A stretch of 64,000 nt of DNA from an uncultured Acidobacteriaceae bacterium (GCA_963703075.1 OY969786.1:4183198-4247197); one strand, 5' to 3'; positions 7,481 to 52,220 are shown, counted from the stretch's first letter. Translations and numbers: made by a program. Notes: generated by a model from the letters alone, not told the origin.

Positions 7481-9949
7481 ATGCCGAACAGAAAGGCTGT
7501 TATCAGTATCGCCTTTGGAGCTCTGACCGTCGTGCTGCCCTGTATGGCGCAGACTCTTACGAACGACAACCTCTCCGTAAACGTCAACGCTGAAAGCGGA
7601 ACCTACAGCTTGGCGCCGCGTGATGGTCAACCAGTGCTTGCCTCGCGGGTTGCAGCGCAGGTCAACCATGAATGGCTGCGCTCGTCCGATTACGTGAATT
7701 GCCGATCAGCGTCCTCATCCTTCAGCGATGAACTCGGTCCTGGGCGCCAGGTAGCAGTGACCTGCTCTGGACGCGAAGGCAGGCCAGACTTGGTGTATGT
7801 AGTGCAGTTGTATGATCAGCAGCCTTACGGCGCGGTACAGGTGAAGGTGCACAACGGCACCGGGCAGCCGGTCGCTGTTCAGGCCATTCGCAGTGTCGAC
7901 GCAGTCGGTCAACCGCTTATCAATCTCGGCGGCCGTGCAAGCGTAGACCGGGTACTTTCCGACAGTTTCAGCGAGGATTGGCCCGATCTGAAGATTTACG
8001 ATCTCGGTAAGGCGACGGGCGGGATGCATCGCGGCGTAGGAAGTCAGCTCATCTACAACCGGGAAAGCCGGCAATCTCTATTCCTTGGTGCCTTAACTTC
8101 CGATCGGTTCTTGACGATCCTGCATCTTCAAGCCAATGATGCTGGGGGAGAAGAAAAGATCGCCTCCTTCACCGTCGAATCCACCGGCACGACCGAAATC
8201 CAAAAGGATTTCGATTTGCAACAATCTCCGGCTGACGATCAAGTGGAGCTGACTCTGACGGTCGCGCCAGGGCAAGAACTCGCTTCCGAACGACTTCTGT
8301 TCGAAGCCGGCAAGGACTATCACCGTCAACTGCTGGCCTATGGAGATGCAATTCGTCGCCTCCACCATGCGCGGGCCGATGGCGAAACACCCATGGGATG
8401 GTGGAGCTGGACTGCCTACTATGGCGCGATTAACGAGGGTGAAACCCTGGCCAATGCCGATTGGCAGTCGCAGCACTTAAAGTCCCTCGGATACAAGTAT
8501 TTCCAGATCGATGAAGGCTACCAGTATGCGCGCGGAGAGTTCACCACTACGAATGCCTCACAGTTTCCAGATGGCATGCGTTTCATAGGACACCGCATCG
8601 TTGCGAACGGCCTCACCCTCGGACTTTGGACTGCGCCCTTCGAGGTCACCACCCGAGCCTGGGTCTACGAGCACCATAAAGATTGGCTCGTGCACAACGC
8701 GAAAGGTGAACCCATTCCGATCGGCGATGTCTGGCACCAAGGCACCGACCGTCTGTATGCGTTGGACACCACCCACCCCGCCGCCCAGGACTATCTGCGC
8801 GAAACTTATAAAACCATCGTTCGCGAATGGGGCGTCCGCTTCATCAAGTTGGACTTCATGGATACGACCGCGATCGAGGGCTATTACCACCGGCCCAACA
8901 CCACCGCTCTTGAAGCACAACGTATTGGCCTTCAGATCATCCGCGATACCGTCGGCAATGACGTGGTCCTGGACAAGGATGGGAGCCCGATGCTCAATCC
9001 AGTTGGACTGGTGGACACCGGGCGCGTTTCCGCCGATACCGGACATAACTTTGAGCGAACCCGGGCGGCAGAGCCTGGCGTCGCCGCGCGCTTCTACATG
9101 CACCACAACTTCTTCGTCAACGACCCGGATGCCTTCAACGTCACCGATAGCTACTTGATGGAAGAACGAGAGCCGCAGCCTCCGGTGTCATTATCGGGCG
9201 CCGAGGCGTCGATAGCCCTCTCTGCTGTCTCGGGCGGCATGTACGAGATCGGTGATGACATGCTTTTGTTGGGCTCGGAGAAAGACCGCCTCGCGCTGGT
9301 TGAAAACCGGGACCTGCTGAACATGGTGAAAGTTGGACGAGCCGCCACGCCGATCGACCTGATGGCCTATGAGCCCAAGGATGAACAACCCAGCATCTTC
9401 TTCCTCCGGGAAGACCAACGCCAATCCATGCTGGTAGTTTTTAATTGGACCAAAACAGCTCGCACGCACACCTTGCAATTAGCTGATCTTGGCCTTCCCG
9501 CGGGAGACAAAGTCGTCACGACGGACGTGCTCGACCAGACAGCGCCTACGGTTGCGGGAACCACGGTGACCATTGCAAACCAGCCTCCGCAGTCCGTGAA
9601 AGTGATCAAGATTGTCGATACGGAAATCGCTCCCGCTGCGCCCACGATCACGGCGCGAGTCCCCTCAAGTGCCAAGGCTGGTGACACGGTCGACTTCTTG
9701 GCGCAGGCCGATGCCGCAGGCGTACCCGCGATCTCTTACATGTGGGACTTTGGCGACGGGACAACTGCAGTTGGCAACAAATCCGCCCATACCTACACGC
9801 GTGCCGCCAATTTCGAGGTGCATCTCATCGCTGAGGGACTCGACGGTGTATCAGCCCGGCAGACATTTTCGATCAAAGTGACCGGGACGCTGCAGGTCAT
9901 GCCAAAGCTTCGCGATAACCGACGGTTCGTAGAACCCACGAGCCACTGA
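7481..9949 (+). CDS. Secreted alpha-galactosidase-like glycoside hydrolase (clan GH-D, GH27/GH36-like) with C-terminal PKD domain
   Basis: ATG at 7481 preceded by GGGAG. Signal peptide MPNRKAVISIAFGALTVVLPCMAQ. TIM-barrel motifs GWWSWTAYY...YKYFQIDEGYQ...GLWTAPFEV...RFIKLDFMD. C-terminal YMWDFGDGTTAVGNKSAHTY is a PKD signature. Confidence 0.7.
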   Translation: MPNRKAVISIAFGALTVVLPCMAQTLTNDNLSVNVNAESGTYSLAPRDGQPVLASRVAAQVNHEWLRSSDYVNCRSASSSFSDELGPGRQVAVTCSGREGRPDLVYVVQLYDQQPYGAVQVKVHNGTGQPVAVQAIRSVDAVGQPLINLGGRASVDRVLSDSFSEDWPDLKIYDLGKATGGMHRGVGSQLIYNRESRQSLFLGALTSDRFLTILHLQANDAGGEEKIASFTVESTGTTEIQKDFDLQQSPADDQVELTLTVAPGQELASERLLFEAGKDYHRQLLAYGDAIRRLHHARADGETPMGWWSWTAYYGAINEGETLANADWQSQHLKSLGYKYFQIDEGYQYARGEFTTTNASQFPDGMRFIGHRIVANGLTLGLWTAPFEVTTRAWVYEHHKDWLVHNAKGEPIPIGDVWHQGTDRLYALDTTHPAAQDYLRETYKTIVREWGVRFIKLDFMDTTAIEGYYHRPNTTALEAQRIGLQIIRDTVGNDVVLDKDGSPMLNPVGLVDTGRVSADTGHNFERTRAAEPGVAARFYMHHNFFVNDPDAFNVTDSYLMEEREPQPPVSLSGAEASIALSAVSGGMYEIGDDMLLLGSEKDRLALVENRDLLNMVKVGRAATPIDLMAYEPKDEQPSIFFLREDQRQSMLVVFNWTKTARTHTLQLADLGLPAGDKVVTTDVLDQTAPTVAGTTVTIANQPPQSVKVIKIVDTEIAPAAPTITARVPSSAKAGDTVDFLAQADAAGVPAISYMWDFGDGTTAVGNKSAHTYTRAANFEVHLIAEGLDGVSARQTFSIKVTGTLQVMPKLRDNRRFVEPTSH

Positions 9950-36479: not shown

Positions 36480-37920
36480 ATGGATATCAATCTACTCACA
36501 ATCGACGCCACTCGTATCGCCATCCAGCAGCGGCAGACGACCGCGACCGCGATCGCCGAGGCGTTTTACAAGAAGATCGAAGCCGAGGATGGCGAAATCC
36601 ACGCCTACCTTACCCTCAGTCGAGACCGCGCCCTCGAGCAGGCCCGCAAGATCGATACCCTCGCCGACAAAGGTGAAGATCTGCCGCCCCTGGCCGGAGT
36701 GCCGGTGGCGATCAAGGATGTGATCTCGACCAAGGGCGTGCGCACCACCGCCGGCTCGAAGATACTCGAGAATTTCGTTGCCCCGTACGACGCCACCGTG
36801 GTGCAGAAGCTCGAAGCTGCCGGCGCTGTCATCCTGGGAAAAACCAACTGCGACGAGTTCGCCATGGGCTCGTCGAACGAGAACTCTGCCTATGGCCCGG
36901 TCCACAATCCCCGCGACAAAACCCGCGTCCCCGGTGGCTCTTCCGGAGGTTCGGCGGCCGTCATCGCGGCGGGCACTGCGGTCACTTCACTCGGCTCCGA
37001 TACCGGCGGCTCCATTCGCCAGCCGGCATCCTTCTGCGGCGTGGTGGGCTTGATGCCTACCTACGGGCGCGTTTCGCGGTACGGGCTGATTGCCTTCGCC
37101 TCTTCGCTCGACCACATCGGTCCGTTCGCGAAGGACGTCAAGGACGCGGCCATCATGCTCGAAGTCATTGCCGGGCGCGATCCGATGGACTCCACCTCGG
37201 CGGAGGTCCCAGTCGCTAAGTATTCCGACGAAATCGGCCAGCCTGTGCGCGGGATGAAGATCGGTGTTGCCAAGGAATATTTTGGCGAAGGCCTCGATCC
37301 GGAAGTGAAATCTTCCGTCGAAGCTTCCATTCAGAATTTGGCGAAGGCCGGCGCGGAGATCGTGGAAGTCTCCCTGCCGCACACAAAGTATGCGATACCG
37401 ACCTACTACCTCGTCGCCACCGCCGAAGCTTCCTCGAACCTGGCGCGTTACGACGGGGTGCGCTATTCGCACCGGCTCCAGCCACGCAAAAACGCTGTCC
37501 GAGATGTACCGCAAGAGTCGCGACGAAGGGTTCGGCGCCGAGGTCAAGCGTCGCATCATTCTCGGAACCTACGCCCTGAGCGCCGGTTATTACGACGCTT
37601 ACTACCTGAAAGCGCAGAAGGTCCGCACCCTGCTTGCCCAGGATTTCGACCAGGCCTTCGCCCAAGTCGACGCGATCGTCACCCCGACCACCCCGACGCC
37701 CGCATTTAAACTTGGTGAAAAGGCCGACGATCCTCTTGCCATGTATCTTGCCGACATCTATACCGTTACCGCGGACCTGGTCGGCATCCCGGGCGTTTCT
37801 GTCCCTTGCGGCGTATCGAAGCAGGGGCTCCCCATCGGCTTGCAGGTCTTCGCGCGACACTTCCAGGAAGGCACGATGATCCGCGTCGCCCACGCCGTTG
37901 AGCACGCGTTGGCGGTTTAA
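36480..37920 (+). CDS. gatA: Asp/Glu-tRNA amidotransferase subunit A, reading frame broken by an apparent 1-nt insertion near 37476
   Basis: Amidase signature [14 protein letters not shown]...[12 protein letters not shown]. Frame 1 reads ...[13 protein letters not shown], then shifts. Frame 2 continues [43 protein letters not shown]...VAHAVEHA, with the same spacing as the B. subtilis GatA sequence recalled from memory. The two pieces are ORFs 36480..37709 and 37390..37920. Confidence 0.85.
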
Positions 37921-39743: not shown

Positions 39744-40400
39744 ATGCTAAAAATCCTTTTAGCCGATAATCAGGCAATTTTCCGGGCGGGCATCGCCAAG
39801 GTGCTCGCAGTGGAAGACGATCTGCGCGTTGTGGCCCAGGCCCAATCGGTAGAACAAATGATGATGGCGCTCGACAAGTTTCGCGCCTCCGTCATGATCT
39901 TCTCGGCCAGCTTCCTGCCTGATCTTCCTTCGGTCGTGCAAGCTGCAACCCGCTGTAAGACGGGCCTGATCGTGGTCGCCGAGAACGGTGAAAACGCTTC
40001 GAAATACCTGAATGCCGGCGTGCGCGGCGTGGTTTACCGCAATGTCAGCGGCGACATGCTCGTGGAGTGCGTCCGCAAGGTATCGCGCGGAGATCGTTTC
40101 ACCCAGGAAACCAAGCCCGCCGCCAGCACTCCGGAAAGCGACGATTTCGTCGGCGCCCGGGTCCGCGACCGCCTCACTCCCAAGGAACTGCGCATTGTCG
40201 CCCTCATCGTCCAAGGCTACAAGAACAAGGAAATCGCGCTGCAATTGGGAACCACCGAGCAGGTCATCAAGAACTACCTGCGCAATGTCTACGACAAGAT
40301 CGGCGTCTCCGATCGCCTTGAGCTTGCGCTCTTCACGATCCATCACCACATCCTGGCGGAAGCCGCGGCCGCGACCACCGAAGGCAAGATTCTCCAGTAA
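39744..40400 (+). CDS. LuxR/NarL-type regulator with atypical (pseudo-)receiver domain
   Basis: C-terminal HTH LTPKELRIVALIVQGYKNKEIALQLGTTEQVIKNYLRNVYDKIGVSDRLEL. Receiver-like N-terminus with ADNQ in place of DD, Ser where the phospho-Asp is expected (SVMIFSASFLP), and Arg in place of the conserved Lys. Confidence 0.8.
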   Translation: MLKILLADNQAIFRAGIAKVLAVEDDLRVVAQAQSVEQMMMALDKFRASVMIFSASFLPDLPSVVQAATRCKTGLIVVAENGENASKYLNAGVRGVVYRNVSGDMLVECVRKVSRGDRFTQETKPAASTPESDDFVGARVRDRLTPKELRIVALIVQGYKNKEIALQLGTTEQVIKNYLRNVYDKIGVSDRLELALFTIHHHILAEAAAATTEGKILQ

Positions 40401-40455: not shown

Positions 40456-40830
40456 CTACGCTGAGCGTTCGCTCCGCTCGCTGGTCTTCAGCAACTCGTT
40501 CACGATCGTGACCAGTTCCTCTGGGTTCACCGGTTTTTCCAGGTAGAGATCGGCCAGGGGTTCAGCGGCCTGGAACGCTTCCGCCACGTATCCCGAAACA
40601 ACCACTACCGGCATGCTGGAGTGAGACTTGGCAGCTTGCACAATGGCACGGCCGTTGGCATCCCCCAGCCGCCAGTCCGTGACCACCGCATCGTACTCGT
40701 TGGTTTTCAGCTTCTCGATGGCATCGTGGGCCGAGCTTGAAGGTGTGACCGTGTGTCCTGCAGCTTCCAAAATGGCGCACTTGAGCGTTACCACGTGGGG
40801 CTCATCATCGATACACAAAATTCTCGCCAT
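40456..40830 (-). CDS. Single-domain response regulator (CheY-like)
   Basis: MARILCIDDEPHV...DAVVTDWRLGDANG...MPVVVVSG...YLEKP. ATG at 40830. Confidence 0.85.
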   Translation of the reverse strand: MARILCIDDEPHVVTLKCAILEAAGHTVTPSSSAHDAIEKLKTNEYDAVVTDWRLGDANGRAIVQAAKSHSSMPVVVVSGYVAEAFQAAEPLADLYLEKPVNPEELVTIVNELLKTSERSERSA

Positions 40831-40970
40831 GGCGTCCTTTGAGCAGGATGGGCGTCTCGCAGCCAGGAATGCGTACACCAGGCAGCAACAATCTGCGCCT
40901 TATTCTTCTGTACTTGACCAGAGTTGTCAATTCCAGCGCGATTTCAGCTCTCAATGACACGAAAGGGAAG

Positions 40971-43604: not shown

Positions 43605-46600
43605 CTACCTTACCTGCGTTACTCCCTGGGGACGCACTGAGGCGGTGCGCTCCAGCTTGTCCCAGGCAAATTCGCCGCCTTCCAGCGCCCGTTTTAGCGT
43701 CTTGATCAGCACCAGCGAAAACAGCTGCCGGTAAGCAAAGCGCTGTAACCACACGTGCGCCAGCAAGAGGAAGTCTTTGTGCCCGCCGGGTTGCTGCCGC
43801 TCCAGGGTGAACGCCACCGCCGACGCAATGAAGTCGATCACCAGGAACAAGGCGAAATACACCAGCAGCTTGTGAAAGCTGGTCGGATCCGTCGATTCCG
43901 GGTGCATATAGCGGTTCCAGGCGTACGATCCGACGCCGAAGATAAACATCAGGTCGATGAACGGCGAAACGATCGGCAGAAAGATCTGGAAGATCACGAC
44001 ATTCGGCAATGCGAACCAGCCGAGCGCGCCGCCCTGGCGGAAAGCCGAGCGATGTTTCCATACCGACTGCATAATTCCGAAGGACCAACGGAACCGTTGG
44101 CGCATCAGGGCGTTGGCCGACGTCGGGGCCTCTGTATAGGCCAGCGCCAGGTCTTCGTACTCCACCCGGTAGCCGGCTTGCAGCAGAGCCATCGTGAGGT
44201 CGGCATCCTCGGCGACGGTGTCATGGTGGTAGCCCCCGGCCGCTCGTACGGCTGCGGTTCTCCACGCGCCGATCGCTCCGGGAACCACGCTCACCGCGCC
44301 CAGCACATCCAGGGCGCGCCGTTCAAAGTTCTGGCTGGTGATGTACTCCAGCGCCTGCCACCGCGTCCACAGATTCATGCGATTGCCGACCTTCGCATTG
44401 CCCGCCATCGCGCCAATTTTCGGGTCCGTGAAGTGCGGAACCAGCAGGGAAATCGCGTTGGGAGCGATGATCGTGTCGGCATCGATTCCCACAAAGAGCT
44501 CTTCGAAGACGAATTCCAGCCCGTAATTCAACGCCTCCGCTTTGCCGGAGTTCGGCTTCGTCAGCAAAGTGATCTTGCCCTGTGCGATCTCCTTGGCAAA
44601 TGCGTTGCGTACCACCTCAAGGGTCCCGTCCTTCGATCCGTCGTCGATCACGATCACCCGCAGGCTTGGGTAGTCGGAATCGAGTACCCCCTGCACCGTT
44701 CGTTCGATGACCGTTTCTTCGTTGTAGGCGGGGATCAGCACGGCCACTGCAGGCTGGTAGCCCGGATCCGTTTGCAACCGGGAACCGCGAATGCGGTCGA
44801 AGATCGCCAGCGTGCCGATAAAGATCAGCCGTCCCGTCATCAATACGTCGCCGATGAAGAAGACGAAGATAACGAAGCTGCTCACGAATCCCAGCAGCGC
44901 GAAGCTCAGGCTGGCGACGATCGCCGCCCAACGCTCGTTCTTGCTGATCGGCGGCATCACCTGCGCCCGCGTCTTCCCCAGCAGCTCGGATACGGGAACG
45001 ATCTGGTATCCGCGCGCCTGGATGGCGGGAATGATCATGTCCAGCGTCTTCACCGTCTCGCTGCGATCGCCGCCCCCGTCATGCATCAGGATGATGTTGC
45101 CGCAGGTAAGAAAGTTCGTCGGCTTGCAGGGCGGCAGGTTACTCAAAACATCCGCCGCCATCTCGCTCGCCGTGCGCCGCGGATTGTCATGCCAGTCGTT
45201 TGTATCGATCTTGTCGCCGACCGTGATGTACCCCATCTCCTGCGAAAGCTCCAGCGGTCCCACCTGGTCGGCGGTGTCGGGTTCCTGATCGATGGAGTAG
45301 GGCGGACGGAATAGTACCGGCTTGATCCCGAGCTTCCCCGCGAACAATCGCTCGGTCAGGTTCAGTTCGACCTTGAAATAAGACCGTGAGATGCCCGCAA
45401 TGTCCGGATGGGTAAAGGTGTGATTGCCAATCTCATGGCCATCGGCGTACAGCTTTTTAGCCAGCGCCGAGTATTTTTCCGTCTGCACGCCGATCAGGAA
45501 AAACGTTCCTTTGACTCCATATTTGTCGAGCACCGCCATGATCTTCGGCGTCCACGTCGGGTCAGGCCCATCGTCGAAAGTAATCGCGATCTTGTTGTCT
45601 GACGCGCCATAGCGCGCAATGCGGTACGGCGTCGGCAGCTTCGAGAAGTCCTCTGCCGAGATCATCCCCGTCGTATTGTCCACGGTCACGGTGCGCTGGC
45701 CGGGCGAAGGCCGCTCCTCGATCTGCAGGATCTCGCCCGCCTCTTCCATGTCCACGTCCTGCCCCGGCGGAACATCTTTCAACTTGTCCGGCGCGTTCGC
45801 TTCTCCCGGCTGGTCCCACACATTCCACAACGAACGGTCCTCTGAGCCAAGCCGCCACAAGGCAAACGTGTTGATCCCGAGTTGCTGCGCCGCACGCATC
45901 TGGTTCAGCGCGCTCACCGCATCCGTGAACCACACATCGTGCCGCGATTTCTCGCCTTCCATAAAGGAGAAGTGCGGGTTCAGCGCATCGCCATCCAGGT
46001 CGACATCCGCTTCGGAATCTTCCGCGCTGGTCCATGCGTCCTGGACGCTGACCGTGTGCGCCGACTGCGGCAGCTTCGATTTGCCTACCGTCGTCCACTC
46101 ATAGCCGTAGTTGCTGATGGCGCAAATGATCTTGCTTCGCGGAATCTGGGTCAGCGCATATTTAAGGTTGTCGATAAACCAATCCTGCGAGGCCACCGGT
46201 CCCGCCGGGCCTCCGGGATAATGCTCGTCATAGTTCATCAGGATCAGGCCATCGGCGAACGGCGCCACGCCCTTGTAATCGAAGTCGGGATTTTTGGCGG
46301 GGACCGCCAGGTACAGCTTCTTTCCGCTGCCGTGCAGGTCCTGGGCGAGTTCCGTCACCAGCGTCTTGTAGCCCGGCATGGCGTCCACCGGAATTTCTTC
46401 GAAATCCAGCGTCAGCCCGCGGTAGTGATCGGTCGCGAGAAATGTTTGCACTTGCTTGCGGAAGTTCGCCCGGCCATCGGGATCGTTCAGGAAGTCGCCA
46501 ATGTCTTCCTTCCAGTCATTGGCGATCGGATCGAAGTTATTCACCAGCGGGAAGACTTCCGTTTCAGCCTTTTCCGACTTGAGAAACGGCATCAGCTTGT

Positions 46601-47069
46601 CATCCACCGGGCGCGCCTTGCCGGCCGGATCCATCACGTCGAACAATTTGTTCTCGGCCGTCACCCCCTGCAAATGGCCGTCGGCTGTCAGCACATGCAG
46701 GAACTCCGGAAAAAGCATGTCGATCTGTGGGTAGTACTGCTTGATGGAAGAGAAACTGGCGGCATCCCAGTCCACGTAAAACGCCGCGCGAATCCCTTCT
46801 GTCGAGTTCAGCACTACCTGCGAAGGCGCTTTTTTCGTCTGGCGGTGGGCTCCCGCTTTCCGCACATACTTCCGCTTCTGACTGTCCTTGAAGGCGTGAT
46901 AGGGCTTCTTGGCTTCGATCAGCCCGATCGACGGAACATCCGTGTTGTGCACGATGCTGACGATGAAAAAGACGACCAGCAGGCTCGCGAGAACGCCGGC
47001 AATGTCGAGTGCCCATCGCAGCCGTCGCCAGCGTTTTCGGTCGGGATCAAAAAAAACAGGACTTCGCAT
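43605..47069 (-). CDS. Trifunctional exopolysaccharide enzyme: GH18-like domain + CE4 (NodB) polysaccharide deacetylase + GT2 processive synthase (PgaC/IcaA/NodC-like)
   Basis: 1154 aa. N-terminal TM. GH18-like LTLDFEEIP and LMNYDEHY. NodB ITFDDGPDPTWTPKI..GNHTFTHP..LFRPPY..ILMHDGGGD. TM block. GT2 VLIPAYNEE..VIVIDDGSKDGT..GIDADT..VAEDADLT..QRFRWSFG (QxxRW). C-terminal TM helices. Confidence 0.85.
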   Translation of the reverse strand: MRSPVFFDPDRKRWRRLRWALDIAGVLASLLVVFFIVSIVHNTDVPSIGLIEAKKPYHAFKDSQKRKYVRKAGAHRQTKKAPSQVVLNSTEGIRAAFYVDWDAASFSSIKQYYPQIDMLFPEFLHVLTADGHLQGVTAENKLFDVMDPAGKARPVDDKLMPFLKSEKAETEVFPLVNNFDPIANDWKEDIGDFLNDPDGRANFRKQVQTFLATDHYRGLTLDFEEIPVDAMPGYKTLVTELAQDLHGSGKKLYLAVPAKNPDFDYKGVAPFADGLILMNYDEHYPGGPAGPVASQDWFIDNLKYALTQIPRSKIICAISNYGYEWTTVGKSKLPQSAHTVSVQDAWTSAEDSEADVDLDGDALNPHFSFMEGEKSRHDVWFTDAVSALNQMRAAQQLGINTFALWRLGSEDRSLWNVWDQPGEANAPDKLKDVPPGQDVDMEEAGEILQIEERPSPGQRTVTVDNTTGMISAEDFSKLPTPYRIARYGASDNKIAITFDDGPDPTWTPKIMAVLDKYGVKGTFFLIGVQTEKYSALAKKLYADGHEIGNHTFTHPDIAGISRSYFKVELNLTERLFAGKLGIKPVLFRPPYSIDQEPDTADQVGPLELSQEMGYITVGDKIDTNDWHDNPRRTASEMAADVLSNLPPCKPTNFLTCGNIILMHDGGGDRSETVKTLDMIIPAIQARGYQIVPVSELLGKTRAQVMPPISKNERWAAIVASLSFALLGFVSSFVIFVFFIGDVLMTGRLIFIGTLAIFDRIRGSRLQTDPGYQPAVAVLIPAYNEETVIERTVQGVLDSDYPSLRVIVIDDGSKDGTLEVVRNAFAKEIAQGKITLLTKPNSGKAEALNYGLEFVFEELFVGIDADTIIAPNAISLLVPHFTDPKIGAMAGNAKVGNRMNLWTRWQALEYITSQNFERRALDVLGAVSVVPGAIGAWRTAAVRAAGGYHHDTVAEDADLTMALLQAGYRVEYEDLALAYTEAPTSANALMRQRFRWSFGIMQSVWKHRSAFRQGGALGWFALPNVVIFQIFLPIVSPFIDLMFIFGVGSYAWNRYMHPESTDPTSFHKLLVYFALFLVIDFIASAVAFTLERQQPGGHKDFLLLAHVWLQRFAYRQLFSLVLIKTLKRALEGGEFAWDKLERTASVRPQGVTQVR

Positions 47070-47144
47070 GCCTACTCGTCTTTATCGTAACGCAAATACC
47101 CGCGTCAAATCAGGCGAACGCACGGTTGCACTTGTTCTAAACCC

Positions 47145-48584
47145 TTGCCGGAGGAAAGAGGCTCGCATCCCCCGTCCCACGAACGTATCATCATCCAGGT
47201 GATCCGATTCCTCCGCAGCGCGAAGTGGGTTTTCCTCGTCGGAACCCTGCTCGCCATCGCCCTGCGCCTGCTCTTCCTCCTGAAGTGGCCGCACGTCACT
47301 GGCGATACCTACATCTACGGCGATATCGCTAAGAACTGGATCGACCATGGCGTCTACGGCTTCTCTCACCCGGGCGGAGAACCCGAGCCCACCTGGATCC
47401 GCCTCCCTGGCTATCCCGGCTTTCTCGCGATCTGCTTCTTCCTCTTTGGGCGCGAACACTACACCGCAGTCATGCTCGTCCAGATGGTCATCGACGTCGC
47501 AACCTGCTTCCTCATCGCCGATCTTACCCGCCGCATGATGAACGACCAGGCCGCCAGGATCGCCTTCCTCCTGGCCTGCCTTTGTCCCTTCACCGCCAAC
47601 TATGTTGCGTCTCCTATGCCGGAGACGCTGTCGATTTTCGCTCTTGCCGGCGCTTTCTGGTGTTTGTACGTCGCGCTCGATCAGCCAAAACGCCGTTGGC
47701 TGGCCTGGACCGGGTGCGGTTTGTTCATCGGCCTCGCCACCTACTTGCGTCCCGATGGCGGTATCCTGCTCGCTGCGGTTGGCCTGTTTCTCCTCGTGCG
47801 TCTCTTCCGCGTCCCGGCAGAGCGCCGCACCACGTTTCTCGCCGGACTTCTCGTGCTCGCCGTCTCCCTCGCGCCGCTGGTTCCCTGGACCTATCGCAAC
47901 TGGCAGACCTTCGCTCACTTCCAGCCCCTCGCGCCCCGCTACGCCAGCGATCTCGACGAATTCACGCCCCTTGGTTTCAACCACTGGGTCCGCACCTGGA
48001 TGGCCGAATATGTATCCGTCGAAGATATCTATTGGCAAATGCCCGGCGCCGATGTGGACGTCAATCTTCTTCCCCGGCGGGCCTTCGATACGCCTCAGGA
48101 AGAAGACGAAACTCGCAAGCTTTTTGCTGAATACGAAACCCGCACCGCCATCTGGCCCGAGCTCGACGAACAGTTTGAACAGCTCGCGCGTCAGCGCGTC
48201 GCTCGTCATCCCGCACGGTATTACGTGCAATTACCGCTGCTTCGTATCGCCGACATGTGGTTTCGTCCCCGCTCCGAAACGCTTCCCCTCGACAGCCGCT
48301 GGTGGCAGGATTACCAGGATGACTTCTGGAACTCTGCCAAAGCCTTCCTCCTGGCGCTCATCAACTTCTTCTATGTAGCGCTTGCCATCGCTGCATGTTT
48401 CCTTCGTCCGCGACCGCGCTACCTGTTCGTCCTCGTTGCGTATCTTGTCATTCGCACGGCATTTCTTGGGACTCTCGAGAATCCCGAGCCGCGCTATACC
48501 CTCGAATGCTATCCGCTGATCATTGCATTGGCCGCAACAACTATTTGGCGGCTCGTTTCGGCAATCAACTCCCGAAAAATGTAG
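47145..48584 (+). CDS. GT39/ArnT/PMT-like integral-membrane glycosyltransferase
   Basis: 479 aa with about 10 or more hydrophobic segments. The first-loop acidic motif GDTYIYGDIAKNW resembles the PMT/ArnT family. TTG start (a GTG at 47199 is also possible). Divergent from the synthase gene. Confidence 0.65.
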   Translation: MPEERGSHPPSHERIIIQVIRFLRSAKWVFLVGTLLAIALRLLFLLKWPHVTGDTYIYGDIAKNWIDHGVYGFSHPGGEPEPTWIRLPGYPGFLAICFFLFGREHYTAVMLVQMVIDVATCFLIADLTRRMMNDQAARIAFLLACLCPFTANYVASPMPETLSIFALAGAFWCLYVALDQPKRRWLAWTGCGLFIGLATYLRPDGGILLAAVGLFLLVRLFRVPAERRTTFLAGLLVLAVSLAPLVPWTYRNWQTFAHFQPLAPRYASDLDEFTPLGFNHWVRTWMAEYVSVEDIYWQMPGADVDVNLLPRRAFDTPQEEDETRKLFAEYETRTAIWPELDEQFEQLARQRVARHPARYYVQLPLLRIADMWFRPRSETLPLDSRWWQDYQDDFWNSAKAFLLALINFFYVALAIAACFLRPRPRYLFVLVAYLVIRTAFLGTLENPEPRYTLECYPLIIALAATTIWRLVSAINSRKM

Positions 48585-48728
48585 ACACACGCTTCGCTTT
48601 TCCGTATCGTGTCCCGCATCCTCGGGGAAGCTCGCTTTAAAGCGTTTGAATTGAGCACAGCGCGCACGGCACAAAGATTGCACTGCTCCCCCAATGTGAC
48701 CGACTCTGCTTACATAGGAGAACCCTCC

Positions 48729-51700
48729 TTGCGGAACCTCCCTCTTCGGATTGCAACTGCCCTCGTATCGACGCTCGCTCTCCTTCTCCTCATCTCTCCA
48801 GCTTTTGCGCAGCAGGCAACCGGCACGGTTCTCGGAACGGTGATGGATTCGCAGGGAGCTGTTCTTCCGGGCGCCAAGATTACCGTTACCAACGTAGCGA
48901 CCGGCATCTCCCACCCCGCGACCACCGATAAGGACGGCACTTTCCACGTCCTCGATCTCGCCATCGGCAGTTACGTGGTCACCGCCGAGCACCCGGGCTT
49001 CGCCAAACTCAATACCGAGCCGCAAACCCTGCAGATTAACCAGAACATCCGTTTCGATATCCGGATGAAGGTCGGTACTAGCCAGGAAGTGGTGGACGTA
49101 GCCGGGACCGCCGCCGGCGTTGAGACCGTGAACTCCACCCTTGGTCAGTCCGTTACCAGCCGCCCCATCATCGACCTGCCGCTGAATGGTCGCGACGTGT
49201 TGCAACTCGCGCTCCTGCAACCCGGCGTCACCGAGACCAATGACGACAATGGAAGTGCCGGCACCTTCAGCATCGCCGGCGGTCGCACCGATTCCGTCAC
49301 CTTTCTTCTCGATGGCGGCGTCAACAACGACCTTCTCGACAACGGAGTCGTCTTTAACCCGAATCCAGATACCGTTGCCGAGTTCCGCATCCTGCAGAAC
49401 AACTACACCGCCGAGTATGGCCGTAACGGCGGCGGCGTGATCAGCGTCGTCACCAAGTCCGGCGGCAACCAGTTCCATGGCAGCGCCTTCGAGTTTCTCC
49501 GCAATGACGCACTCAATGCCAACACCTACTTCAACAAGAATGAGAATCTCAACCCGGTTCCTTTGCCGCGCGATGTTCTCAAACGTAATCAGTACGGCGC
49601 CACCCTCGGCGGCCCCATCGTCAAAGACAAGCTCTTCTTCTTTGTCAGCTACGAAGGCCAGCGCCTTACTGCCAAGGTCAATCCATCCAACTATGGCGAC
49701 ACCAGCACAACCCAGGTCTTCACCGCTTCGGAACTGCAAGGCAACTTTAGCGGGGACCCCGGCGTAGCCGCGTTCCTGCAGGCGAATCCTTACTTCCTCG
49801 CGCCCGGGACCACCCCCTCCCAGGCCATCATCGATCCCGCCAAGTTCGACCCGGTCTCCAAGAACTACATCGCCGCCGGGCTGATCCCCAGCACAACGAA
49901 CGCTTCCGGTCTCGTCACGCCGACCGCAAGCCATACGGACAACTTTAACGAACTCAGCGTCAAGATTGATTACGACCTGACGTCCAAGGACCGGATCTCC
50001 GCCACGTTTGGCGGTCACAAGGACCAGCAAACCGACCCCTACGAGTTCGCTTCGGTGAATGGCTTCCCCAACCTCAATGGCTTGGATAATTACTTCCTGA
50101 ACATCGCTTACACCCGGACGATCTCCAACGCCATGCTGAACGAGCTTCGCTTTACCGCGCAGCGGAACAACGTCCTGCAGGAATACGTCAGCGGCGCCAA
50201 TGCCTCGCAGACCGGCCCGACCCTCGGCATGGGCGTCACTCCCGACCAGGCTACGGGCCCAACCAACCTGTGGTTCGATACCGGCCTTTACATCGGCTAC
50301 AGCGAGCAAGGACCTACCCACGAGGCGAACAATACCTTCTCGTATGCCGACACCTTCTCCTGGGTGAAAGGCAAACACAACTGGAAGTTCGGCGCTGGCT
50401 TTACGCCGTACCAGAACAACACTCTTTACGACTACTACGTGAACGGCGAAATGGATTTCTATTCCGGCGGGAACTCCGGCAACGCGGGAACCGGCAATTC
50501 CTACGCCGACTTTCTCCTGGGAATCCCCGGAGCGTATTACCAATATCCATCCGCTCCCTCGAATATCCGCAGCAAAAACACCTTCTTCTTCGCGCAGGAT
50601 GAATGGCACGTCGGCCGCCGGTTGGTGTTGAACCTGGGCGTTCGTTACGAATACAGCACCCCGAAACTCGATACCGCCGGTCGCAGCTTCTCCGTTATTC
50701 CGGGTGCCCAATCCACCGTGTTCCCCAACGCGCCCACCGGCCTGGTTTTCCCCGGTGACGCAGGCGCTCCGACCGGGGCCAACTTCCCCGACAAGAACGA
50801 CTGGGCGCCACGCTTCGGCTTCGCTTGGGATCCAACCGGAAGCGGCAAAACCAGCCTCCGCGGCGGCATCGGCGTCTTCTACGACATTCTCAAGGGCGAA
50901 GACAACCTCCAGTTCAACGGGCAGCCGCCCTTCTTCTCATCGGCTGGTCTTTATTTCGGCGACCAGGCGAATGGGGTCACTTCTAACTACACCTTCCTCA
51001 GCCAACCCTTCGACAATGCCAGCGCTGGCACCGCCGGCCAGGTCAATCCATTCCCGTCTAAACCGGTCGACCACAATCTCGACTTCGGCGCGTCGGGCTT
51101 CTTGCCGATCAACAACGCCGGCTCGGTGTACATAGTCGATCCGCATTTGCGCACTCCCTATACCTACCAGTACAACCTCAGCCTCGAACATGAACTCGCA
51201 AAAAGCACCACCATGGATCTCACCTACGTGGGCAGCGAGTCGCATAAGCTGACCTCACTTGTGGATATCAATCCCTTCGACCTCGACAACAACAGCGGTG
51301 TGCGCCTTCTGAACGAACAGAACACCACCAGCATCCAGAATTGCAATGCCGGTTTCGGCTACTGCTTCGCCGATATGCCGGAGTTCCGCAACGTGGCGGA
51401 TCAGAACTACAACGCCTTGGAAGCCAGCATCACCCGCCAGCCGACCAAGACCGGACCGCTCGGTGATACCTACTTCACCATTGGCTACACCTACGGACAC
51501 AGCATCGATAACGCCTCCGGCTTCCGTCAGCGCAATTCCGGAGCGCCGTACTACGACACCAGCGCGTTCCGCGCCTCTTCTGACCTCGACATCCGCCACC
51601 GCATCACCATCAGCGGCGGATGGGATCTCGCCATCGATCACTGGTGGGAAAGTGGCTGGAAAAAAGTAACCCAAGGCTGGAGTGTCTTCCCCATCTTCAC

Positions 51701-52220
51701 TTGGCACACCGGTTTCCCGATTGACGTTCCGGCGCGCTTCGGCGATCGTAACGATCCCACCGCTCCAGGTCCCTCCGGCGCCGGAGATCCTTACCTGGCA
51801 TTCGCCAACGTGGTCGGTCCCACCAATACCCTGAACCCTCACGCCGCGACTACCTACAACGTTCCCGGCAATCCGGGTCCAACCACGGGCGCTTATTGGA
51901 TCAATCCACTCTCGTTCTCCAATTCCTGCGAGTACGTGGATGCTTCCAGCGGCTGCCCGAACGGCTATGGCTCACCCTACGGCGATTTAGGGCGCAACCA
52001 GTTGCGCGCCTCGAACTACACCAATCTGGACTTCGAAATCGCCAAGACCACCAAGCTGTCCGAACGGGTCGCGATGCAACTTCGCGCGGAGATGTTCAAC
52101 GTCTTCAATCACGCGAACTTCAAAGCGCCCGATACCACCATCACCGACATCACCTTCGGACAGATCACCAGTACCTACGACCCGCGCATCATCCAGCTCG
52201 CGCTCCGGTTCACTTTTTAA
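48729..52220 (+). CDS. TonB-dependent outer-membrane receptor with CarboxypepD_reg-like N-terminal domain
   Basis: Probable TTG start 8 nt after AGGAGA (the ORF is open from 48609). Signal peptide ...LLLLISPAFAQ. GTVLGTVMDSQGAVLPGAKITVTNVATG...GSYVVTAEHPGF. Plug IAGGRTDSVTFLLDGGVNND. Terminal ALRFTF. Confidence 0.85.
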   Translation: MRNLPLRIATALVSTLALLLLISPAFAQQATGTVLGTVMDSQGAVLPGAKITVTNVATGISHPATTDKDGTFHVLDLAIGSYVVTAEHPGFAKLNTEPQTLQINQNIRFDIRMKVGTSQEVVDVAGTAAGVETVNSTLGQSVTSRPIIDLPLNGRDVLQLALLQPGVTETNDDNGSAGTFSIAGGRTDSVTFLLDGGVNNDLLDNGVVFNPNPDTVAEFRILQNNYTAEYGRNGGGVISVVTKSGGNQFHGSAFEFLRNDALNANTYFNKNENLNPVPLPRDVLKRNQYGATLGGPIVKDKLFFFVSYEGQRLTAKVNPSNYGDTSTTQVFTASELQGNFSGDPGVAAFLQANPYFLAPGTTPSQAIIDPAKFDPVSKNYIAAGLIPSTTNASGLVTPTASHTDNFNELSVKIDYDLTSKDRISATFGGHKDQQTDPYEFASVNGFPNLNGLDNYFLNIAYTRTISNAMLNELRFTAQRNNVLQEYVSGANASQTGPTLGMGVTPDQATGPTNLWFDTGLYIGYSEQGPTHEANNTFSYADTFSWVKGKHNWKFGAGFTPYQNNTLYDYYVNGEMDFYSGGNSGNAGTGNSYADFLLGIPGAYYQYPSAPSNIRSKNTFFFAQDEWHVGRRLVLNLGVRYEYSTPKLDTAGRSFSVIPGAQSTVFPNAPTGLVFPGDAGAPTGANFPDKNDWAPRFGFAWDPTGSGKTSLRGGIGVFYDILKGEDNLQFNGQPPFFSSAGLYFGDQANGVTSNYTFLSQPFDNASAGTAGQVNPFPSKPVDHNLDFGASGFLPINNAGSVYIVDPHLRTPYTYQYNLSLEHELAKSTTMDLTYVGSESHKLTSLVDINPFDLDNNSGVRLLNEQNTTSIQNCNAGFGYCFADMPEFRNVADQNYNALEASITRQPTKTGPLGDTYFTIGYTYGHSIDNASGFRQRNSGAPYYDTSAFRASSDLDIRHRITISGGWDLAIDHWWESGWKKVTQGWSVFPIFTWHTGFPIDVPARFGDRNDPTAPGPSGAGDPYLAFANVVGPTNTLNPHAATTYNVPGNPGPTTGAYWINPLSFSNSCEYVDASSGCPNGYGSPYGDLGRNQLRASNYTNLDFEIAKTTKLSERVAMQLRAEMFNVFNHANFKAPDTTITDITFGQITSTYDPRIIQLALRFTF

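Follow-up and report, generated by a model that had tools for sequence, protein, structure and literature searches.

This study concerns a 64,000-nucleotide stretch of DNA from an uncultured Acidobacteriaceae bacterium (GCA_963703075.1, OY969786.1:4183198-4247197), hereafter called the window, and a gene on its minus strand that joins a GH18-type glycoside hydrolase domain, a CE4 polysaccharide deacetylase domain, and a GT2 glycosyltransferase domain in one polypeptide. The 1154-residue product (P0001) is referred to as the tri-domain protein. Our analysis suggests, at a probability of roughly 0.65, that it is a one-chain synthase of the type formed by Streptomyces MatA and MatB, which would make a partly de-N-acetylated polymer of N-acetylglucosamine (GlcNAc), most likely one resembling poly-N-acetylglucosamine (PNAG), with a GH18 module for binding or trimming built in.

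A sequence-only reading of the window had described a single 1154-residue polypeptide, and the frame that encodes it is indeed unbroken. The gene is present in a single copy in its genome, which is assembled as one contig of 4.76 Mb. It is monocistronic, with the end of a convergent open reading frame (ORF) lying 2 bp from its stop codon. Its closest named relative, a protein of Candidatus Koribacter versatilis Ellin345, is 83% identical and is annotated as "polysaccharide deacetylase". The parts of the gene are listed below, where TM denotes a transmembrane helix and HMM a hidden Markov model.

43605-47069, minus strand: tri-domain gene, one uninterrupted frame of 1154 codons with an ATG start
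46944-47069, minus strand: MatA-core-like module, residues 1-42, a predicted cytoplasmic motif (MRSPVFFDPDRKRWRRLR) followed by TM1 (conservation, HMM, model helix 12-41)
45810-46802, minus strand: GH18 (beta/alpha)8 barrel of the YaaH/SleL/YdhD subtype, residues ~90-420 (Pfam, phmmer, Foldseek)
45606-45764, minus strand: small all-beta linker domain between GH18 and CE4, residues 436-488 (model strands)
44970-45602, minus strand: canonical CE4/NodB deacetylase, residues 490-700 (Pfam, Foldseek, motifs)
44787-44942, minus strand: TM2, one long helix predicted to bring the chain back to the cytoplasm, residues 710-761 (hydrophobicity, model)
44055-44756, minus strand: GT2 catalytic domain of the processive synthase type, residues 772-1005 (Pfam, NCBIfam, motifs)
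43605-44045, minus strand: C-terminal membrane and interface helices, residues 1009-1154, and the stop codon (model, conservation)

Domain anatomy and relationship to Streptomyces MatAB

From its N-terminus, the tri-domain protein comprises a predicted cytoplasmic motif, TM1, GH18, the small beta domain, CE4, TM2, GT2, and the C-terminal helices. All three catalytic domains lie above curated Pfam cutoffs: Glyco_hydro_18 (PF00704) matches residues 187-408 with 52.8 bits against a cutoff of 29.6, Polysacc_deac_1 (PF01522) matches residues 490-592 with 105.4 bits, and Glyco_tranf_2_3 (PF13641) matches residues 773-998 with 118.8 bits. The motifs from which the sequence-only reading had recognized these domains are in place, with LTLDFEE at 219 and NYDEHY at 279 in GH18; TFDDG at 497, HTFTHP at 550, FRPPY at 587, and MHDGGG at 662 in CE4; and IDDGS at 808, DADT at 863, EDADL at 954, and QRFRW at 991 in GT2.

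An AlphaFold2 model of the protein, computed from a 43-sequence alignment, has a mean predicted local distance difference test score (pLDDT) of 87 and a predicted template modeling score (pTM) of 0.66. From the N-terminus, a helix at 12-41 (TM1) and a disordered linker at 41-73 precede the barrel at ~90-420 and the beta domain at 436-488; CE4 (490-700) comes next and is followed by a helix at 710-761 (TM2), a GT-A domain at 775-1005, and helices at 1014-1055, 1062-1089, and 1097-1130. The strands of the linker domain (438-488) are modeled with a pLDDT of ~90, and residues 436-488 have no Pfam match. Hydrophobic segments fall at residues 16-46, 714-757, 1013-1049, and 1063-1091, and the helices at 12-41 and 710-761 flank the GH18 and CE4 domains in the model. 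Because the N-terminus is rich in Arg and Lys, the positive-inside rule would place GH18 and CE4 in the periplasm and GT2 in the cytoplasm, the topology that had been proposed from the sequence. The predicted cytoplasmic tail at the C-terminus is conserved (LQRFxYRQL...GWxKLxR), with Q1109, R1114, G1131, and W1136 of this region invariant.

The closest characterized relative of the protein is MatB. Residues 491-1149 align with residues 91-714 of a 733-residue MatB orthologue at 37% identity over 671 residues (E 1e-131), such that the CE4-TM-GT2 arrangement of MatB is matched over its whole length. The Streptomyces CE4-GT2 proteins were first found by searching plasmid records. In Streptomyces viridiviolaceus, the gene for the 733-residue CE4-GT2 protein is overlapped at its start by a gene for a 431-residue membrane protein, and an Acyl_transf_3 gene lies next; this order is the published matA-matB-SCO2961 arrangement (PMC4391728, PMC5972031). 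Kitasatospora has a second chromosomal locus with the same MatA-like/MatB-like gene pair. PNAG production needs both matA and matB (PMC5972031). The MatAB polymer is recognized by an anti-PNAG antibody and is removed by dispersin B and not by chitinase, and calcofluor staining is independent of it (PMC5972031). MatA has been described as a protein without known domains (PMC5972031), and Streptomyces coelicolor MatA as an O-glycoprotein with one membrane helix (PMC6593405).

The counterpart of MatA is found in the first 42 residues of the tri-domain protein. In the window, the N-terminus reads P-V-F-F-D-P-D-R-K-R-W-R-R, and the motif has the general form PxFxDxxGRRxRR. Over 208 aligned full-length homologues, which were used for all residue counts given here, F6 is invariant and D8 and R13 are each kept in at least 83%. 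Few positions in the family are conserved as strongly as these three, which precede TM1. The first 42 columns of the alignment of tri-domain proteins served to build an HMM, with which six-frame translations of 120 loci (2.15 million residues) were scanned. The HMM matched every tri-domain gene and just two further ORFs, both upstream of Streptomyces MatB-like genes (E 4.8e-6 and 5e-4); the next match has an E value of 0.46. Both ORFs carry P-V-F-V-D-x-S-G-R-R-Q-R followed by a hydrophobic helix in the same place. The motif occurs in all 37 actinobacterial relatives of the Streptomyces (MatA-like) ORF, with HMM scores of 19-38 bits, and P0432, a MatA-position protein whose gene overlaps the start codon of a matB-like gene, scores 33.6 bits.

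By these sequence comparisons, residues 1-42, with their core motif and TM helix, are the equivalent of the MatA core; the similarity spans only about 40 residues and is based on syntenic orthologues rather than on SCO2963 itself. The tri-domain protein therefore appears to read as a MatA core, a GH18 domain, and a MatB in one chain. The MatA-position proteins of S. viridiviolaceus (locus L122, 5001-9832) and Kitasatospora (loci L120 and L121, 5001-7713) share only PVFVDxSGRRxRR and the TM core. In the actinobacterial MatA-position proteins, the N-terminal and Pro/Ala/Thr-rich C-terminal parts vary much in length (156-431 residues).

Catalytic domains and proposed function

The GT2 domain has the residues of the processive membrane synthases, namely D810, D863-x-D865, E954-D955, and Q991-R-F-R-W995, and the membrane helices would form a channel. 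D810, D863, D865, E954, D955, Q991, R994, and W995 are present in 207-208 of the 208 homologues. Among NCBIfam models, PgaC_IcaA is the best match with 173 bits, compared with 101 bits for NodC, and Foldseek against the PDB pairs the GT2 and membrane part with the Chlorella-virus and Xenopus hyaluronan synthases and with BcsA (7sp7, 8smn, and 4p00). The identity to Escherichia coli PgaC is 31% over a 228-residue GT core only, and NodC and HasA are nearly as similar (28-32%). The CE4 domain contains all five motifs of its family (TFDD at 497-500, H550-T-F-T-H554, R588-P-P-Y, D622-x-x-D625-W626, and L661-M-H663), including the Asp-His-His metal triad, the catalytic Asp and His, and W626. D499, D500, H550, H554, R588, D625, and H663 are found in 208 of 208 homologues; across CE4 and GT2 together, the catalytic residues are essentially invariant, with two single exceptions. 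By fold, CE4 matches Bacillus cereus PgdA Bc1960 (5o6y; TM-score 0.83, normalized to target). Taken alone, CE4 is nearest to the NCBIfam families PgdA, PdaB, and NodB, and it matches neither the IcaB nor the PgaB model.

The GH18 domain belongs to CAZy family GH18 by sequence and predicted fold. It aligns with 3cz8 and 5jh8 (phmmer, E 1e-24, DFE motif aligned), and Foldseek matches it to 5jh8 with a TM-score of 0.86 (normalized to target) and also to SleL and YdhD. D222-x-E224, the Y280-D281 pair, and W405 are intact. Opposite the motif G-L-T-L-D-F-E, the alignment has G-V-T-I-D-F-E in YdhD and G-I-N-V-D-F-E in 5jh8, and the upstream Asp residues of DxxDxDxE are absent (R217 and T220), as throughout the SleL/YdhD subtype. 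On the question whether this domain is intact or lectin-like, its D-x-E core is complete and the missing Asp residues are a trait of the subtype. The GH18 residues vary in the family, with D222 kept in 185, E224 in 169, Y280 in 170, D281 in 179, and W405 in 190 of the 208 homologues. The catalytic Glu is replaced in 39 of them (~19%), which keep the fold and many other positions; Granulicella, Bryocella, and Edaphobacter have D-F-Q or G-F-Q instead of D-F-E.

What this analysis shows is the identity of the domains, the integrity of their catalytic residues, the predicted topology, a collinear relationship to MatB by homology, and an N-terminus homologous to the MatA core; from these results we infer the following mechanism. 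The cytoplasmic GT2 domain would polymerize UDP-GlcNAc and push the chain through its own membrane channel. The tethered periplasmic CE4 domain would then strip some of the N-acetyl groups, giving a partly cationic poly-GlcNAc that is most likely PNAG-like, as for MatB. GH18 would bind the emerging chain and, with its D-x-E intact here, probably also cleave or trim it, a role that would parallel those of the PgaB hydrolase domain, BcsZ, and PelA in other systems. The N-terminal PxFxDxxGRRxRR motif and TM1 would serve as a built-in MatA equivalent, an accessory element needed for synthase activity, and a divergently transcribed membrane glycosyltransferase gene, described below, would encode a lineage-specific partner found in Terriglobia only. 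The sequence-only reading had likewise envisaged a machine for synthesis, deacetylation, and possible trimming, and the domains and their catalytic residues support it, with the three activities extrapolated from homologues.

Several observations weigh against this assignment. The MatAB-type reading of the family draws on homology, and the similarity to MatA is short. The PgaC_IcaA score is far under the equivalog cutoff (422 bits). About 19% of the homologues lack the GH18 catalytic Glu; therefore, not every member needs hydrolysis. No predicted feature accounts for passage of the polymer through the outer membrane, and no outer-membrane exporter lies with the gene. Among deacetylases, CE4 is closest to those that act on peptidoglycan and chitooligosaccharides and not to IcaB or PgaB. 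To our knowledge, all characterized GH18 enzymes act on beta-1,4 and not beta-1,6 GlcNAc linkages. Given this specificity and the CE4 affinities, the polymer could be chitin-like.

The last two points lead to an alternative that we regard as unlikely but credible, in which the protein is a bacterial chitin/chitosan machine. GT2 would make beta-1,4-linked poly-GlcNAc, CE4 would convert part of it to chitosan, and GH18 would be a true chitinase that sets the chain length or releases (chito)oligosaccharides. The GH18 fold with intact D-x-E, Y-D, and Trp residues is consistent with such a machine, as are the relationships of CE4 to PgdA, NodB, and chitin deacetylases and a Pfam Chitin_synth_2 score of 34.9 bits, over the cutoff of 27. 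The near-equal similarity of the GT2 core to NodC, HasA, and PgaC and the hyaluronan synthases as best structural matches point the same way. However, the PgaC_IcaA model clearly outscores NodC, and MatB, the closest characterized relative, makes a polymer that is degraded by dispersin B and resistant to chitinase (PMC5972031).

It is also possible, though rather unlikely, that GH18 is mainly a noncatalytic carbohydrate-binding guide for the nascent chain, with hydrolysis incidental or absent. The C-terminal domain of PgaB was first described as such a guide. The replacement of the catalytic Glu in domains that keep their fold, as with D-F-Q in Granulicella, Bryocella, and Edaphobacter, fits this idea, as does the contrast with the CE4 and GT2 residues, which essentially never vary. 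Yet D222, E224, Y280, D281, and W405 are all present here and in ~81% of the homologues, a pattern suggesting that, in most lineages, purifying selection acts on catalysis. On this basis, GH18 is probably active in the tri-domain protein, while the role conserved across the family may be chain binding, with cleavage optional.

A third alternative, in which peptidoglycan and not the polymer would be the substrate of the periplasmic GH18 and CE4 domains, which could open or modify the wall locally for passage or anchoring of the polymer, is improbable. The nearest solved or curated relatives do act on peptidoglycan (SleL/YaaH and YdhD for GH18; PgdA Bc1960 and PdaB for CE4). Against it, Pfam detects neither LysM nor any other module that binds peptidoglycan, a membrane helix on either side tethers the two domains directly beside the synthase, and in MatB an identical CE4-GT2 layout is tied to PNAG (PMC5972031).

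Distribution and genomic neighborhood

The distribution of the architecture was surveyed by searching 1.84 billion representative proteins (clustered at 50% identity) at E <= 1e-30. The search returned 2516 proteins; nearly all of the best 150 have 1100-1250 residues, and they align over their full length at 34-59% identity. Full-length homologues number more than 200 and come from Acidobacteriota, Alphaproteobacteria, Gemmatimonadota, Bacteroidota, Deinococcus, and Bacillus. When species-representative genomes were scanned, carriers of the full-length gene were identified in Acidobacteriota (Bryocella, Granulicella, Edaphobacter, Sulfotelmatobacter, Acidiferrales, Pyrinomonadaceae, and Chloracidobacterium), Alphaproteobacteria (several Sphingomonas species, Caulobacterales, Parvibaculum, and Rhizomicrobium), Gemmatimonadota, and Bacteroidota (Segatella paludivivens and Chitinophagaceae). 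Further carriers, on finished replicons, are Deinococcus, Bacillus mycoides, Sulfitobacter, Sphingobium, Novosphingobium, and Prevotella nigrescens. Within the sampled acidobacterial genomes, 22 of 151 have the gene, including 10 of the 11 from the family of the window. The architecture is therefore not rare: it is common in the databases and spans several phyla, and it has been public since the Koribacter genome under the automatic annotations "glycosyltransferase" or "polysaccharide deacetylase family protein". Literature searches found no functional study of the tri-domain (GH18-CE4-GT2) form, as the sequence-only reading had supposed.

A tree built from 70 full-length proteins groups the members from Pseudomonadota, Bacteroidota, and Gemmatimonadota into one branch per phylum; the fusion is therefore old and mostly vertically inherited, which indicates, as judged from sequence phylogeny, that it has long been retained as one gene. 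On a Bacillus mycoides plasmid (p322; locus L116), IS6-family transposase genes (2155-2862 and 8853-9539) bracket the tri-domain gene, which is carried on large plasmids; this arrangement suggests that the gene is mobile within the B. cereus group.

Fusion of two or three adjacent genes by sequencing or assembly error is next to impossible, because the many database entries of 400-840 residues that resemble separate GH18 or GH18-CE4 proteins sit on short contigs or carry a "partial" label, whereas the full-length homologues are single ORFs, some on finished replicons of cultured strains, and the window itself belongs to a one-contig genome. The same single ORF recurs in the best 150 representatives, in 80 genome loci, and on finished plasmids and chromosomes. 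Candidate two-domain forms (representatives of 715-814 residues) were rejected as fragments on contigs of 2-4 kb. Stand-alone TM-GH18 proteins were sought with the N-terminal 480 residues, and truncated pieces of tri-domain genes dominated the results.

Beside the tri-domain gene lie the following two features.

47070-47144, no strand assigned: divergent intergenic region of 75 bp between both start codons (sequence read)
47145-48584, plus strand: divergent gene for a GT-C membrane glycosyltransferase of 479 residues (Pfam PMT_2, 67.7 bits)

The 75-bp spacing agrees with that noted earlier. A simple scan of this region found no consensus sigma-70 promoter, and no riboswitch or other Rfam family was detected in the window, including the intergenic region. 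The neighbor had been described as GT39-like. Its GT-C fold and PMT_2 match bear out part of this description, and its membership in GT39 is not demonstrable. The AlphaFold2 model (mean pLDDT 93) has ArnT, AglB/STT3, and Pmt as about equal best fold matches in Foldseek, and no PDB sequence match was found. GT39 protein O-mannosyltransferases have a GT-C core plus a luminal MIR domain and are typically ~700 residues long. At 479 residues, the neighbor has no soluble domain, and ArnT (GT83) and STT3/AglB (GT66) match it as well as Pmt. It is a compact GT-C enzyme of the ArnT/PMT/STT3 type.

A GT-C gene adjoins the tri-domain gene in 28 of 71 loci, nearly always divergently, and all 28 belong to Terriglobales or Acidiferrales (Terriglobia). 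The tri-domain proteins of these two orders are only ~42% identical, and maintenance of the pairing despite this divergence suggests a functional tie in Terriglobia. No GT-C neighbor was found in the loci of Alphaproteobacteria, Gemmatimonadota, Bacteroidota, Bacillus, or Deinococcus, and no other neighbor recurs across phyla in the loci compared. None of these loci, nor the surroundings of the window gene, contains an IcaC-like acyltransferase of the SCO2961 type.

Directly after the GT-C gene, at 48609-52220 on the plus strand, lies a gene for a 1203-residue outer-membrane protein (CarboxypepD_reg, Plug, and OMP_b-brl_4; 614 bits). A homologue adjoins the GT-C/tri-domain pair in seven close relatives, with varying orientation. 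This adjacency is probably plain synteny, and the protein is the only outer-membrane candidate nearby. The absence of a PgaA-like porin noted for the window holds genome-wide: a search of the whole genome with TIGR03939 gave only weak matches to the TPR region, at most 35 bits against a cutoff of 367.

Further neighbors were noted at individual loci. On a Deinococcus sp. KNUC1210 plasmid (locus L115, 7539-9074), a sensor diguanylate cyclase gene directly follows the gene for a 1149-residue tri-domain homologue; E. coli pgaABCD likewise adjoins dgcT. A GGDEF protein is encoded within 6 kb in only 2 of 75 tri-domain loci. Because such neighbors are rare and the window lacks a riboswitch, we do not claim a link to cyclic di-GMP. 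On a Sulfitobacter dubius plasmid (locus L117, 6992-9442), a gene for a DUF3131 protein of ~816 residues follows the tri-domain gene in the same orientation after a gap of 62 bp, and its product may be a lineage-specific partner. In the window, genes for a LuxR/GerE-type regulator (39744-40400, plus strand) and a stand-alone response receiver (40456-40878, minus strand) lie 3-4 kb downstream of the tri-domain gene, and a 409-residue Amidase/GatA-like ORF (36480-37709, plus strand) covers only positions 2-325 of the 445-position profile.

Significance and comparison with known systems

The Pga, Ica, Bcs, Pel, and Alg biofilm polysaccharide systems are multi-protein synthase-dependent machines, and how synthesis is coupled to modification and cleavage in such systems is an open structural question. 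With three predicted steps and a MatA-like element in one confidently modeled chain, the tri-domain protein is a compact target for cryo-electron microscopy, and it also lends itself to making partially deacetylated GlcNAc polymers in a heterologous host. The GH18 Glu, lost in some members only, offers a natural test of whether export requires cleavage. In abundant soil phyla, where aggregation and carbon turnover are shaped by extracellular polysaccharides, the family is common; its cultured carriers include Sphingomonas, Sulfitobacter, Deinococcus, Bacillus mycoides, and Prevotella. The architecture as a database entry and CE4-GT2 fusions were already known; what is new is the apparent homology of the N-terminal ~42 residues to the MatA core, a link that suggests a role for a protein described without known domains in the Streptomyces literature.

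A bolder picture, which we offer tentatively and consider doubtful as a whole, is that of an autonomous single-gene exopolysaccharide system operating in both monoderms and diderms. Its GH18 domain would be either the first to act on beta-1,6-linked PNAG or a sign of true chitin/chitosan. The N-terminal segment would be the functional core of MatA, acting in cis as an activator or gate like PgaD or IcaD, and the GT-C enzyme of Terriglobia would glycosylate the synthase or its product.

The PgaC/IcaA and PgaB/IcaB pair had been put forward as the precedent for this protein. The resemblance of GT2 to PgaC stands, and that to PgaB does not, with BLASTP finding nothing better than E 0.69 between E. 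coli PgaB and the tri-domain protein; the best functional precedent is Streptomyces MatAB (PMC5972031). The protein shares with PgaABCD and IcaADBC the logic of a GT2 synthase, a CE4 deacetylase, and a glycoside hydrolase on a GlcNAc polymer, together with the GT2 core that finds PgaC_IcaA as its best NCBIfam model. It falls outside the PgaC/IcaA equivalog TIGR03937, scoring 173.2 bits for positions 37-356 of the 407-position model, or 176 bits when the genome was searched, against a cutoff of 422.3, and outside the PgaABCD system, which is marked by a PgaB with CE4 and GH153 and by the PgaA porin. In PgaB, the hydrolase is GH153 and C-terminal to CE4, whereas in the tri-domain protein it is GH18 and N-terminal to CE4.

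Gram-negative pgaB clades fused to GT domains, in operons without pgaA and pgaD, were reported in a 2020 survey, with production not experimentally confirmed (Bundalovic-Torma et al. 2020, PMC7112194). The tri-domain protein resembles them as a deacetylase-GT fusion without pgaA and pgaD. The survey makes no mention of a GH18 domain or of the N-terminal motif, and it proposed that hydrolase activity may be dispensable in those clades (PMC7112194), whereas the tri-domain protein has a hydrolase-type domain built in. NodC/NodB and the class I hyaluronan synthases likewise share a processive GT2 that uses UDP-GlcNAc with D, DxD, ED, and QxxRW, and a hyaluronan synthase is the best structural match; the identity is only 28-32% over the GT core, NodB is a separate protein, and hyaluronan synthases lack periplasmic modifying domains. 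The spore-cortex GH18 hydrolases and their relatives, namely SleL/YaaH (4s3j and 4s3k), YdhD (3cz8), and the Chromobacterium protein 5jh8, share the subtype in which the motif is reduced to G-x-x-x-D-F-E, along with the Y-D pair and the C-terminal Trp, at TM-scores of 0.64-0.86 (normalized to target). The tri-domain protein differs from them in having no LysM, in its predicted membrane tether, and in its fusion to CE4 and GT2.

The closest comparison is with MatA and MatB (SCO2963 and SCO2962). The order of TM, CE4, TM, GT2, and C-terminal helices is collinear with MatB, and the N-terminal PxFxDxxGRRxRR motif with its TM helix matches the core of the MatA-position proteins. The tri-domain protein differs from this pair in being one polypeptide, in the GH18 domain and beta linker (~400 residues) inserted between the MatA-like helix and CE4, and in lacking the Pro/Ala/Thr-rich tail of MatA; its locus has no adjacent IcaC-like acyltransferase gene, and its host is a diderm. 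The tri-domain form is an uncharacterized relative of the known synthase-dependent systems.

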